Assembly (NCBI GenBank): GCA_038844785.1
Contig: JAWBRA010000017.1
Coordinates: forward strand, 1 to 32,860
Source of the DNA: Candidatus Caldarchaeum sp.
Lineage (GTDB): Archaea; Thermoproteota; Nitrososphaeria_A; Caldarchaeales; Caldarchaeaceae
Direction: 5' to 3'
Length of the DNA: 32,860 bases
In this document: positions 1 to 25,535 of the stretch, in pieces
How the letters are laid out: the number at the start of each line of letters is the position of its first letter
Numbering within the stretch: the stretch's first letter is position 1
Made by a program: the position numbers and the translations under genes
Notes under the pieces: generated by a model
Database searches by the model: none
What the model was told of the DNA's origin: nothing
Seen by the model: only the letters and a program-made list of their open reading frames with translations

Positions 1-2
1 CG

Positions 3-239
3 TACGCCGACTTCAGTAAGGGAATCACGAAGCTAAAAAACTATTTTGGACCCTTCAAAGTAGATGGAAGGAAAAAGGGTAAGAGGAAGATATTCAGCGG
101 GGAAGCTCGTAAAGCCTTAGAGATGCTTACGATGGCTTTAAAAGGAACTGCGATGATAACAGCCAAAAACCAACTACAAACAATCGAGAAAATCAGAGAG
201 ACGTTGTCAGGAGAGAGGCTGGAGGTCATACCGGCTTAG
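3..239 (+). CDS. 3' end of a probable IS110-family/Nop-domain-like transposase (truncated by the window edge)
   Basis: Not in the ORF track. Open frame from 3 to TAG 237-239: YADFSKGITKLKNYFGPFKVDGRKKGKRKIFSGEARKALEMLTMALKGTAMITAKNQLQTIEKIRETLSGERLEVIPA. The DF...L..Y.G...basic loop...R.AL spacing resembles the IS110 C-terminal domain. A structured non-coding end follows. Confidence 0.5.
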   Translation, partial: YADFSKGITKLKNYFGPFKVDGRKKGKRKIFSGEARKALEMLTMALKGTAMITAKNQLQTIEKIRETLSGERLEVIPA

Positions 240-382
240 ACAGCAAAGAAAAACCCCAAGCCGGTATGACAAATTTTTTAACATGTATGGGTGTAAAACC
301 CGTACATGACACCTAGTTTAACATACCGGCCTCTCTCTTACAGGGGTTCTCAGGTGCTGTCTTGTTGGGATGGCCTCCAGCC
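217..382 (+). ncRNA. Long rod-like structured RNA with a symmetric guide-like internal loop (candidate bridge/seek/tigRNA-like RNA)
   Basis: Nested helices 217-229/370-382, 238-245/355-362, 252-257/343-348, 260-268/322-330 and 282-292/298-308. Non-WC positions are G-U on the + strand. The 13x13 internal loop (269-281/309-321) carries ATGAC-N9-AACAT twice. Confidence 0.65.
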
Positions 383-393
383 AAACCCTCCCC

Positions 394-411
394 TTATTTT
401 TTCCTTCTTTT
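394..411 (+). terminator. Archaeal-type oligo-T terminator after the structured RNA
   Basis: TTATTTTTTCCTTCTTTT lies 12 nt after the base of the long hairpin. Confidence 0.45.
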
Positions 412-479
412 GGTTTCTGTGTTAACCGTGTTTTATTTAGGCATATTCTTTACGATGTTTTTTGGATAGCGTCAGCAGC

Positions 480-487
480 TTTTTAAC
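480..487 (+). promoter_or_regulatory. TATA-like box upstream of the C/D-box-like sRNA; also the candidate element junction/target site
   Basis: TTTTTAAC lies about 25 nt upstream of the C box at 512. Confidence 0.4.
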
Positions 488-506
488 TAGGTTATCTATT
501 GGTTGT

Positions 507-566
507 ACGGGATGATGACGAACGTCCATCTTGAGCTGTGATAGGCGATGGGCAGTCTGACCAACC
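507..566 (+). ncRNA. Box C/D sRNA-like gene
   Basis: C box ATGATGA 512-518, 12-nt guide 519-530, D' TTGA 531-534, degenerate C' GTGATAG 538-544, 12-nt guide 545-556, D box CTGA 557-560. Flanks GGTTG 501-505 and CAACC 562-566 are complementary. Ends are approximate. Confidence 0.7.
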
Positions 567-1660
567 TACGCTAAAGATGTGTCCAACAAAGTGACGTCTG
601 TCGACCCGTCCTCAGAATATGTTGCGAAGACACGGTCGGGGTAGAGAAGCGAGAGGTATGAGAATGCGCGTGCGGCTGAGGAGGGAGATGACCTAAAACC
701 ATCTTCGACAAGCTTGTAAGCCGCGGCGAGGCAGAGGACGTCAAGCCTAACCCTACCCAGAACCCTGTTGAGGACCCTGTACACCTCAGTCAACGTCTGG
801 GCTTCAACATTCTGCGTAGGGTGTTTGAGAGAAAGCACGGATGGCGCGAGATAGTTGAACAACGCTTGCTCAAGCTTGTCACGCGGCTTCTCCAGCACAA
901 CCTCCAAATCACGAGAAAGCTTCAAAACCTCAAGCGCTGCGGCGTATCTCCCCCTTTGCGCTCTCTCCAAAAAACCTAGGTCGATAAGCCATTCCAGCCT
1001 AGGTGGGACAGCATGACGGTACTTGGCATACTGCCGGCTACGTATCCAGTCAGCTTTCGAACGGTATGTCAAACGTGTTTCCCTAAACTTCAAGGCTTCC
1101 TGAAGCTCTGCGTTGATGGACTGCCGCATCTTATCCGATGGGTTTTTCAAGGCACGTTTCAGAGCCTCTGGGTAGATCTCCTCCATGACTGTTTCCATGG
1201 CTTGTTGGCGGGAGAACACACGGGTTTTTAAAACCCAGCGGACAATCTGGCCTGTCATGAGGAAATCTTTGATCAACAATGTTTGGGTGAACAGAAGCTT
1301 CTCCACGCTGTTGAGAAGGAGGGCGGAGGACAGTTTTGCAGTGCTTTCCCCAGCTACGTGACGTTTCAGAGTGTATGACGAGCTTAAGCATGTGTAGACC
1401 GCGCCAAACTCGCCCACCTTCCCCGTTCTTCTGTCGTAGAAGCCGAGCTGGGAAGCCAGTTTCACATAGTTGCGGGCGTTAACCTCATTCCTCAGCAGCC
1501 CGGGCATCCTGTCTCCTACATCGTCTTCCATAGACCGGCATGTCTCCAGCAGAACTGATGCGAGATAGTCGGGAGACCTTGCTGCACCGTCTTCAAGTAT
1601 GCAGGCTACAAGCTTGAGGTAGCCAAGCCTGCAGGCGTCGCCGTGCAGTTCAAAGATCAT
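566..1660 (-). CDS. Hypothetical 364-aa helical protein with winged-helix-like segments, coupled to the methyltransferase
   Basis: Long ORF starting 1 nt after the MTase stop. wHTH-like segments NYVKLASQLGFYD and PRLEWLIDLGFLER..RGRY. No catalytic motif recognised. Confidence 0.75.
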   Translation of the reverse strand: MIFELHGDACRLGYLKLVACILEDGAARSPDYLASVLLETCRSMEDDVGDRMPGLLRNEVNARNYVKLASQLGFYDRRTGKVGEFGAVYTCLSSSYTLKRHVAGESTAKLSSALLLNSVEKLLFTQTLLIKDFLMTGQIVRWVLKTRVFSRQQAMETVMEEIYPEALKRALKNPSDKMRQSINAELQEALKFRETRLTYRSKADWIRSRQYAKYRHAVPPRLEWLIDLGFLERAQRGRYAAALEVLKLSRDLEVVLEKPRDKLEQALFNYLAPSVLSLKHPTQNVEAQTLTEVYRVLNRVLGRVRLDVLCLAAAYKLVEDGFRSSPSSAARAFSYLSLLYPDRVFATYSEDGSTDVTLLDTSLA

Positions 1661-1661
1661 C

Positions 1662-2834
1662 CTACACCAGCCTCCCCCAAGCTAAGAACCTATCCCTAAC
1701 GTCGGGCTCGCCCTTGCTAAGCACCAGAATTCTTTCCTTTCCCACGCCCTGCCCCCTCTTAAGATACATCAGATACTTGCGACCCTTTCTAATCCCGTCG
1801 CTGATGACGGTTTTGGCTGTGAACCCTGCTTTCTCAGCGGGGTTGACTAAAAGCTCAGCCATGTCTACAACACGTCCGCCAAGCCGTACCTCGCCGACAA
1901 CCAAAACACAGAACCTATCATCTTTGAGCAGGCGATACATTTCGCTCAAGGCCTTTTCCATGAACCTGACGTATTTCTCCACAGATTGTGTTCCGAAAAG
2001 CTTTCTCCCAACTTCACGGTAGTCGTGTCCGAGAAACCATAGCCTAAGCCAGTTATCCCAAGCGTATGTCTGGATGTTAAAGTATGGTGGGGAGGTGACG
2101 ATGAGGTCGACGGATTCGTCCGCTAACGGAAGCTTTAGCGCGTCTGTGTTGAAGCAAGCACCTTTCACAGGCGGAAGACCATCCGCCAAAACCATCTCAG
2201 CCTTCCGAAGCAGGCATGCGAGAACGTTTCTGACCGGTTTCTTCAACCTGTGATGTTGAGCATATCGTCTAATGTAGCCCGGAGCCATGGAGAAAGAATG
2301 GCTGCATGGGAGGCTCAGGCTTATCTCAGAAGACCCATGTAAAATTCCCAGCATCAACGCTTTGACAAAGTTTGAGACATCGTCTTCAGCCTGCAGAAGC
2401 AGCTCCCGTACAGCTAGGATTTGCTTGAGGGTTTGGGGGTGGAAGAAGACTCGAACGTCTTCGTCAACGTCGTAGGTTGAAACGGTGTCAGGCCTCATCA
2501 GCTTAGAGGCTTCCTCAACCCAGCGTCTAACTTCTCTGAGCGTGGCAGGGTTCACCTTAGCGCGCGTCACAACATAGGCTTCCGGAGCCAGGTCGTTTCC
2601 AACCCCAACACGTCCAGCCAAACATGCCTCGAGGGGTGCTGTCCCCTTCCCTGAAAACGGGTCCAGCACGATCTGACCCCTGTCGGAAAACTTTTCAACA
2701 ACCCATCTCGCCAGAGCGGGTGGGAAAGATCCTGTCCTCGACATTATGCGGTGGAGCGATGAGCCCCAGTTCTTTCCAGCAAGCTTCCATGAATCGGCAA
2801 TCTCGCTGCTTAGGACGTATGTGACCTCCCTCAT
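1662..2834 (-). CDS. Amino DNA methyltransferase, probably N4-cytosine
   Basis: SAM-binding motif I VLDPFSGKGT near the N-terminus. Catalytic motif IV LIVTSPPY; SPPY is typical of m4C MTases. Confidence 0.9.
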   Translation of the reverse strand: MREVTYVLSSEIADSWKLAGKNWGSSLHRIMSRTGSFPPALARWVVEKFSDRGQIVLDPFSGKGTAPLEACLAGRVGVGNDLAPEAYVVTRAKVNPATLREVRRWVEEASKLMRPDTVSTYDVDEDVRVFFHPQTLKQILAVRELLLQAEDDVSNFVKALMLGILHGSSEISLSLPCSHSFSMAPGYIRRYAQHHRLKKPVRNVLACLLRKAEMVLADGLPPVKGACFNTDALKLPLADESVDLIVTSPPYFNIQTYAWDNWLRLWFLGHDYREVGRKLFGTQSVEKYVRFMEKALSEMYRLLKDDRFCVLVVGEVRLGGRVVDMAELLVNPAEKAGFTAKTVISDGIRKGRKYLMYLKRGQGVGKERILVLSKGEPDVRDRFLAWGRLV

Positions 2835-3041
2835 CGGAAAACTGCGGCATGCCCATGCCTCGCTTTATCCGTTGTCTCTCACAGGCTGCATGCTATTCCC
2901 TCATTATCCTCAAAGGCAGCACCGACGTAATTCATCGGTATTATCTGTATGGTTGAGGGGTTTTTGCGAGGATTTGGATGCGGCTGTCCGAGAAAACAGT
3001 TAACTAAAATATGTCCTCTTACATTGTTTTAGAACGCCGGT

Positions 3042-25342: not shown

Positions 25343-25535
25343 CCGTGTTTCAAATCTACGGGCGATGGCTACTATTTTCCCTTTCCTCGAGCGGTTGGAG
25401 AGACGGCGTAACAACAACCATTATTCCATTGAAGTCGTTGATTATAGATGATGGAGATACGGCTGTAGTGTTGGTGTTTGGTGTTAAAAACGTTTGTGTG
25501 TTCGGTTTAATAGCTTGTGGACAGGCTCCATTTCT

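Follow-up and report, generated by a model that had tools for sequence, protein, structure and literature searches.

A single-gene mobile element of Candidatus Caldarchaeum whose guide RNA loop probably spells its own insertion site

The window, by which we mean the whole stretch of DNA that was analysed, is 32,860 bases long and starts at the first base of contig C17 in a Candidatus Caldarchaeum genome (G000; 1.74 Mb in 57 contigs). It opens inside a gene: positions 3-239 (plus strand) hold the last 78 codons of an open reading frame that runs off the contig start, and a full-length copy of this gene (L004:376-1206) encodes a protein of 276 amino acids. The last codons overlap the outer stem of a structured RNA (217-383, plus strand), which is followed by a conserved module closing in a run of T (384-410, plus strand) that may be the terminator of the RNA, and then by a right arm (411-479, plus strand) which is specific to this copy, apart from a portion common to two other copies, on contigs C11 and C22, up to about 445. 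Positions 480-486 (no strand assigned) are the TATA box in the promoter of a box C/D sRNA at 508-562 (plus strand). The sRNA itself produces weak C/D matches in Rfam (18 bits, against gathering thresholds of 40-50), and this stretch on its own matches many relatives, being 80-96% conserved in many genomes of the order; given such conservation, we consider it a real sRNA that is poorly covered by the Rfam library. Just downstream of it, window positions 566-2834 on the minus strand carry a 364-aa open reading frame without a family and a 390-aa N6/N4 DNA methylase (PF01555, E = 4.8e-19), a pair which may represent a restriction-modification system. All evidence on the element described below is comparative, and sequencing runs were examined as contigs.

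We regard the structured RNA as real: the predicted fold of positions 200-420 has an energy of -95.3 kcal/mol (z = -7.6), not reached by any of 200 shuffled sequences, and when copies are compared 5 of the 36 predicted pairs still pair after changes on both sides. No Rfam family was found for it in a search of window positions 1-3000, nor did we see a C/D box consensus in it. It is built from an outer stem, a pair of conserved internal loops, a lower stem, an internal loop that is symmetric and variable, and an apical hairpin. The two strands of the variable loop, which we call guide strands A (271-279, plus strand, 5' side) and B (311-319, plus strand, 3' side), are each preceded by GAC and followed by AAC. 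Across nine genomic copies of this RNA type, stems and GAC/AAC frames are maintained and the enclosed 9-mers are almost completely different, while two further RNA subfamilies follow the same plan with other frame letters. Each RNA has one variable loop only, the remaining unpaired stretches being conserved among copies, and every copy that was read has one guide unit per gene. Visual inspection of the RNA for a further guide that would bind the donor gave no more than a weak similarity of a conserved stem to the right arm of this copy, which was not found in the copy on C23, and no match between the RNA and the element ends was established. Three copies (C11:10853/10854, C22:27268/27269 and C57:5203/5204) lack exactly the 67 nt corresponding to window positions 211-277; this deletion removes the outer 5' stem and guide strand A, so the RNA of these copies cannot form the loop, and they are probably dead copies sharing one deletion.

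The gene and its RNA are repeated many times over. Window bases 1-500 match 41 places in the genome and the 276-aa gene matches 33 stretches, many of them at contig ends, which amounts to about 20 or more gene copies or fragments. Similarity between copies generally stops at about 405-411, with two copies (C11 and C22) extending to near 445, and contigs from four sequencing runs have loose ends at 405-407. Some copies (L004:1-310 and others on contigs C12, C15, C46, C9 and C27) also have a GC-rich upstream leader of several hundred nucleotides in common; it includes an inverted copy of the right-end motif, and on C27 the leader occurs without the gene. Taken together with the junctions analysed below, and as far as comparison of sequences can tell, window positions 1-486 are very probably the right end of a Candidatus Caldarchaeum mobile element that carries one conserved gene and, immediately after it, a guide RNA of about 170 nt.

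What drew attention to this locus was a correspondence between the loop and the DNA beside it. Positions 311-318 form an 8-mer whose exact reverse complement stands at 485-492, and the 8-mer at 275-282 is identical to 480-487; these two matches, reported in the preliminary description, are indeed present in the window. Counted on either strand of the whole 32,860-nt window, the 311-318 8-mer occurs 2 times where 1.0 is expected (at least 2 in 26 of 100 shuffles), and the 275-282 8-mer, which recurs at 25483-25490, has an expectation of 0.95 (at least 3 occurrences in 10 of 100 shuffles). The counts alone are thus not significant, and it is the closeness and the geometry of the matches that are unusual. 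Moreover, the match of 275-282 takes in the conserved AAC at 280-282, leaving five T as the only contribution of the variable part, so that the earlier caution about its low complexity was well placed. Considering the full 9-mers, strand B is complementary to 484-492 at 8 of 9 letters, and strand A, which reads in the same sense as the target's left half, agrees at 8 of 9 letters with both a left flank on another contig (C45:8944-8952) and an allele without the element (L013:54-62). The significance of the loop-flank match comes from its replication in other copies.

Alleles without the element reveal what the site looked like before insertion. Three relatives (G007, G004 and G002) have an uninterrupted TATA-like site 22-28 nt before the same C/D sRNA, and the DNA upstream of that site is unrelated to the window in all three. 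Window positions 477-1660 are 85% identical to the DNA on the right of the empty site in G007 (G007:C27:8845-10028), and the 1.2 kb on its left are 93% identical to C45:7746-8943 of the genome under study. Directly afterwards, C45:8944-8951 reads as the first eight letters of strand A, followed by AA and then by other DNA; the left junction (C45:8947-8953, no strand given) is thus TTTTTAA, as at window 480-486. The connection between C45 and the window rests on synteny together with one contig from a related strain. This contig, from sequencing run X8, joins the left-flank sequence directly to window position 482 and is an empty allele in a related population. Since similarity to the empty alleles begins at about 477-482 and the X8 contig joins at 482, the right junction lies at 480-486 and not at about 405-445, and 487-492 are host DNA, the part of the target's right half that lies beyond the shared letters. 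An element end at about 405-411 (or 420-445 for C11 and C22), with 480-492 as a chance match, had been a candidate boundary and was dropped after the empty alleles and the C45 flank were found; the right arm at 411-479 is likewise missing from the empty alleles.

Each prediction from the window letters that could be checked is borne out, subject to four corrections given below. The left flank expected from strand A exists at C45:8944-8953, and the proposal that the two loop strands are meant for opposite DNA strands of one site, as in bridge RNA and tigRNA guides, is supported by empty alleles in which both half-sites are adjacent. An empty allele close to the predicted one occurs in G007 and G004 (L012:1501-1516 and L013:54-69), with one T and one A fewer than predicted. 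The earlier placement of the right junction near 485 rather than near 400 was likewise accurate, as was the idea of an insertion into a promoter whose TATA box is rebuilt: the sRNA keeps a TATA box at the right junction, since both junctions carry these seven letters. That the site is a promoter could also be read differently, namely that the RNA-protein complex is a regulator bound to the adjoining promoter, comparable to transcriptional repression by nuclease-dead Tas proteins, 480-492 being a binding site and no junction at all; dead Tas proteins act as repressors according to the part of a preprint considered here (bioRxiv 10.64898/2026.09.09.750476). We regard this regulatory reading as very improbable, given that the target is split in the occupied locus with its left half on C45, that similarity to the empty alleles starts at the site, and that only half-sites stand beside elements. 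Furthermore, a genome-wide scan for intact 18-mers built from eight loop pairs found none with fewer than two mismatches, which is about chance level and fits targets that are split or absent.

If the loop specifies the insertion site, then the loops of other copies should resemble their own flanks, and this is what a survey of 35 units suggests. Loops were read off the RNA structure alone; downstream DNA was too short in one unit (n = 34) and upstream DNA in seven (n = 28). An exact half-site lies within 1 kb on the right flank in 18 of 34 units, compared with 1-2% for non-cognate loops, and six units have an exact half-site on the left as well. Within 1 kb downstream, the exact complement of B was found for 10 of 34 cognate pairs against 19 of 1140 non-cognate ones, and the exact complement of A for 8 of 34 against 11 of 1142. 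Within 3 kb upstream, exact A was found in 3 of 28 cognate and 8 of 944 non-cognate pairs, and exact B itself in 3 of 28 and 30 of 940. The wrong-strand controls were empty, both for B itself downstream (0/34) and for the complement of A upstream (0/28). Covariation of loops with flanks, proposed earlier from the one copy in the window, is therefore seen across copies, with the reservation that these copies are related and several have guides or ancestry in common, which means that the counts overstate independence; for 16 of the 34 units, the 1 kb on the right contains no exact half-site. The survey also bears on whether the matches are mere coincidences in AT-rich promoter DNA. An 8/9 match within 1 kb does arise in 219 of 1140 non-cognate loop-flank pairs, and such coincidence would also suit the low-complexity left match of the window; a chance origin is nevertheless extremely improbable in view of the roughly 18-fold enrichment of exact matches, the empty wrong-strand controls and the discovery of the predicted left flank on another contig.

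Individual copies allow the same comparison at higher resolution. For instance, the copy on C23 has a 9/9 complement of strand B about 160 nt past the T run, and the orthologous place in three genomes without the element (G006, G002 and G003) has both halves side by side, strand A matching at 8/9. The material includes two near-complete genomes, G008 (4 contigs) and G009 (1 contig). In their elements L092, L096 and L101, strand A is found at 9/9 at -1549, -1496 and -1382 from the loop, and the downstream complement of B at 9/9, 8/9 and 9/9, respectively. L091, L093 and L094 are the mirror image of this arrangement, with B itself upstream and the complement of A downstream, all exact; both orientations relative to the target thus occur.

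The four elements with both junctions in hand (the window copy, L092, L096 and L101) define the geometry of the target. On the reconstructed sites the two guides overlap by 2-3 nt, so that the target measures 15-16 bp; the joined 9-mers envisaged in the preliminary description do supply both halves of the site, albeit in this shorter, overlapping form. Neither a single 3-nt overlap rule nor an 8+8 rule was retained, as each fits some elements and not all. By reading, the letters common to both junctions number 7, 6, 4 and 7, respectively, around the centre. In the RNA subfamily of the window, site centres are A/T-rich and TATA-like, and three of the sites have the start of a gene or sRNA 7-37 nt downstream. 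The insertion site of the window copy is a TATA box, as had been proposed, and one RNA subfamily targets tRNA genes instead. We thus amend the first account of this locus in four respects: the length of the target, the size of the element including its right arm at 411-479, its orientation and its target range. From these comparisons we consider it highly likely that the loop strands spell the element's own insertion site, with one guide strand for each DNA strand, and that insertion splits this site.

In the tRNA-targeting subfamily, which is the second RNA subfamily, the complement of B falls on the anticodon arm of the tRNA gene that follows immediately, where it covers the last two letters of the stem and six letters from the start of the loop. 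This register is the same at C9 (8/8), C3:86099 (8/8), L098 (8/8) and C3:27693 (7/8), and C6:3474 has an exact 8/8 match downstream for which no tRNA register was placed. By manual count, strand A joined to the complement of B agrees at 16 of 17 letters with the native tRNA-Lys genes of G006 and G007, which have no intron. At C3:86099, the tRNA-Arg locus is 98% identical to that of G004 from about 6 nt before the B site onward, and the first ~25 letters of the tRNA differ from the native gene of G004; we take this 5' divergence to mean that the new 5' part of the tRNA came in with the element as a replacement. In L027 a leftover 5' fragment of tRNA-Val breaks off precisely at the B site, and the tRNA there is in the opposite orientation, which points to a relation with the DNA and not with the tRNA transcript. 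Among L023 and L025-L028, searches upstream for strand A (at least 8/9; 2.5 kb covered for L025, L026 and L028) and for displaced tRNA halves found neither. In L026, the B-matching site, about 100-135 nt after the end of the guide RNA, lies within a 21-nt tandem duplication whose two near-copies are adjacent.

The tRNA-Lys beside the element at C9 (L074) contains a 30-nt insertion in its D-arm region (C9:13853-13882), inside the A half-site; this insertion is missing from the native genes of G006 and G007, and also from G004, where element and tRNA are arranged in the same way. Similar stretches (C3:27483-27496 and C2:73664-73677) appear as partial BLAST matches of 14 nt beside two other elements of this subfamily, and the remaining tRNAs next to its members seem, by eye, to carry look-alike insertions. 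Another peculiarity concerns the similarity between copies. The last ~500 nt of C2:73761-74300 and C9:13100-13800, including the guide loop, are nearly identical; the 5' halves of this element pair are about 85% identical, and the sequence after the RNA is different. Such a mosaic pattern suggests, from sequence comparison, gene conversion between copies. Two copies, C2b and C28, have the same loop as C9 without matching their own tRNA, and gene conversion may explain these mismatched loops.

On C45, the left junction of the window copy is followed inward by about 75 nt of DNA specific to this copy, then by a repeated module, and then by an open reading frame of 313 amino acids on the other strand which reaches the contig end, giving at least 1.17 kb between the junction and the end of the contig; this copy is therefore larger than the unit of gene plus RNA. 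A 56-nt piece just inside the junction (C45:8957-9010) is 96% identical to C3:70975-71030 and may be flanking DNA carried over from an earlier site. The repeated module (C45:9026-9141) belongs to a conserved left-end sequence of ~190 nt found at about 17 other places in the genome. In several of them it directly follows tRNA 5' fragments that stop in the anticodon loop, and these sites look like left junctions of tRNA-targeting elements. With the 313-aa reading frame on the other strand and at least 1.17 kb of such content, and with tRNA genes being classical integrase targets, one might suppose that an unrelated integrase of a larger island made the junctions, the TasR-like gene and its RNA being a passenger that cuts or blocks the empty site in the service of retention or homing. 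We judge this scenario improbable. The 1.53 kb between the junctions of L101 contain no other open reading frame above 100 aa, the elements of L096 and L092 measure 1.9 and 2.5 kb, and junction sites differ from copy to copy and follow the loop. Guided insertion thus remains our preferred reading of these junctions.

Sequence searches say little about the 276-aa protein. Pfam, NCBIfam and PDB sequence searches returned no significant family for it; PF01548 and PF02371 gave no Pfam match at E values up to 10, the NCBIfam model NF033542 (IS110) scored 12.3 bits against a cut-off of 140 (E = 0.069), and a PDB search with a profile of 27 homologues retrieved neither an IS110 chain nor any other relative. 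The 281 homologues detected are all without a name, and nearly all come from Caldarchaeum and related MAGs. Structure prediction is more informative. An AlphaFold model built from 27 homologues (pLDDT 82, pTM 0.77) matches TasR (9mty_A) in VIA-align with Z = 13.3 (rmsd 3.9, 235 residues, covering model residues 6-273), TasH chains with Z = 12.3-12.9, and ISCro4 and IS621 with Z = 12.9 and 12.8, respectively (246-248 residues, model residues 11-270), while Foldseek compares the model with ISCro4 and IS621 chains at E = 9e-6 to 2.6e-4. Nop5 (3pla_A) is more distant (Z = 7.8; 147 residues) and covers only model residues 107-272. The protein is thus predicted to have a TasR/IS110-like fold. Across the 27 aligned homologues, residues D20, D39, D44 and D90 are invariant and E107 nearly so, and no serine stands among the 24 invariant or 27 nearly invariant columns. 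At the best candidate serine position, a manual count gives S in 17, N in 7, D in 2 and Y in 1 of the 27, and copies whose flanks match exactly are of the N type.

These features have to be weighed when asking whether the protein is a true recombinase or transposase, which, with target recognition unchanged, would exchange strands directly between the excised, circular element and the target in the manner of IS110 bridge recombinases, with the shared junction letters as the crossover core. The predicted fold, matching ISCro4 and IS621 over the whole length (up to 248 residues), speaks for this; the 4-7 letters common to both junctions, the presence of a single-gene element of 1.5 kb at many sites, and the weak NCBIfam hint of IS110 speak in the same direction. 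On the other hand, an invariant serine is lacking, the exact-match copies having N, the RNA has one variable loop with no donor-binding loop seen, copies do not share conserved element ends beside the junctions, and both orientations occur. We therefore consider direct strand exchange rather less likely than not.

We tentatively favour a model of cleavage followed by repair, while placing its chances at somewhat below even. By analogy with TasR and the IS110 recombinases, a protein dimer would hold the pseudo-symmetric loop and unwind the empty site, and each strand of the unwound site would pair with one guide strand; the occupied locus would be safe, as insertion splits the target. The RuvC-like domain might then make staggered cuts around the site centre in the manner of TasR, a step to which we give a little less than an even chance. 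On the same chemistry, and with the same reserve, the element would afterwards be copied or joined in by repair, leaving a short duplication at the junctions. In the part of the paper considered here (Faure et al. 2025, PMC12045711), TasR makes cuts with 3' overhangs of 8 nt and remains active when its spacers are swapped. Our preference for cleavage comes from the absence of a conserved serine, of a second variable loop and of conserved element ends, as well as from the occurrence of both orientations, the 8-nt overhangs of TasR and its tolerance of swapped spacers. The varying number of shared letters (7, 6, 4 and 7) is a poor fit to a fixed stagger, and the exact matching of loops to new sites is accounted for by neither the cleavage nor the recombinase model.

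Among known systems, TIGR-Tas is similar in that the predicted fold of the 276-aa protein matches TasR over its whole length; Tas proteins have a Nop domain and a coiled coil, to which TasR adds a RuvC domain. The stem-loop array type of TIGR, as far as the part of the literature considered here describes it, likewise has a pseudo-symmetric RNA unit in which two 9-nt guides face each other, each addressing one DNA strand of a contiguous site, and its guide roles are symmetric, TasR accepting swapped spacers just as the Caldarchaeum element shows both orientations. That the guides address opposite strands of one contiguous site follows for our element from comparison, the empty alleles holding adjacent half-sites. 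The loop strands here have GAC and AAC as conserved frames, with other letters in the other subfamilies, and any counterpart of the box C-like and D-like motifs around TIGR spacers would be putative. The differences are, however, considerable: there is one guide unit per gene, partly overlapping the 3' end of the gene, instead of a tandem array, the guides target the place in the host chromosome where the element is itself inserted, the cassette is a multi-copy mobile element, and no similarity to the 276-aa protein was found at the sequence level. Furthermore, the guides overlap by 2-3 nt, whereas the part of the TasR paper considered here (PMC12045711) reports no overlap and a tolerance of gaps of 1-2 bp.

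IS110 and IS1111 elements offer the second point of reference, and in IS1111 the RNA lies downstream of the gene, as it does here. On the basis of the parts considered of Durrant et al. (2024, PMC11208160) and the structures 8wt6, 8wt9 and 9t56, the resemblance extends to a single-gene mobile element with a fold combining a RuvC-like domain, a coiled coil and a C-terminal, Tnp/Nop-like RNA-binding part, to strands of an internal RNA loop that match the left and right flanks, and to a short sequence common to both junctions. Unlike these elements, the Caldarchaeum protein has neither a Pfam or NCBIfam IS110 match above cut-off nor an invariant serine like the conserved catalytic one in the C-terminal domain of IS110, its RNA has one variable loop in place of the target and donor loops described in these sources, the element ends are not conserved, both orientations occur, and some right arms carry a replacement tRNA 5' part. 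Box C/D sRNPs, represented by Nop5, have in common with our system a coiled coil with a C-terminal domain and a guide RNA with two guide segments; the similarity is weaker and confined to the C-terminal part, a C/D box consensus is missing, and the Caldarchaeum guides match both DNA strands at insertion sites rather than methylation sites in rRNA or tRNA. Tyrosine-integrase elements, finally, insert into tRNA genes and replace the 3' part of the tRNA. One Caldarchaeum subfamily similarly enters the anticodon arm and restores the tRNA with a replacement part, with the difference that an RNA loop picks the site, that the 5' part is replaced, and that the small elements are without an integrase gene.

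The comparative evidence supports a new form of natural, programmable RNA-guided DNA targeting and insertion, and in the literature passages that we searched no description of this archaeal family was found. If the reading is correct, a 276-aa protein and one single-loop RNA of about 170 nt would choose a site of 15-16 bp with no flanking motif, a system smaller and simpler than the bridge recombinases and directly reprogrammable. Moreover, natural retargeting has occurred many times within one genus, which makes the targeting rules readable from genomes, and the fact that promoters and tRNA genes are hit and repaired by the element bears on the origin of archaeal promoters, split tRNAs and tRNA introns. 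TIGR-Tas is not known to be mobile; the element would thus provide, inside the archaea, a link between TIGR-Tas and the mobile IS110 family.

A more speculative joint reading, which we think unlikely to hold in full, is that of a self-contained archaeal insertion system guided by a single protein and a single-loop RNA, without the IS110 serine or donor loop and without TIGR arrays, which may stand near the mobile ancestor of Tas, IS110 and perhaps the Nop5 RNPs. Its tRNA branch would bring its own tRNA 5' part, and the 30-nt insertion, which splits a guide half-site in the tRNA next to the element and is present in the genome studied here and absent from G004, may guard against re-targeting and thereby give rise to certain non-canonical tRNA introns of archaea. 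In a 2024 preprint on the origins of IS110 and Nop5 (10.1101/2024.06.21.599552), going by the part considered, an archaeal clade ancestral to Nop5 is said to be possibly absent from the data. Overall, the Caldarchaeum element works like the target loop of a bridge RNA or like a tigRNA, and it stands outside IS110 by its sequence, its lack of the serine and the absence of a two-loop RNA, and outside TIGR by the absence of an array.
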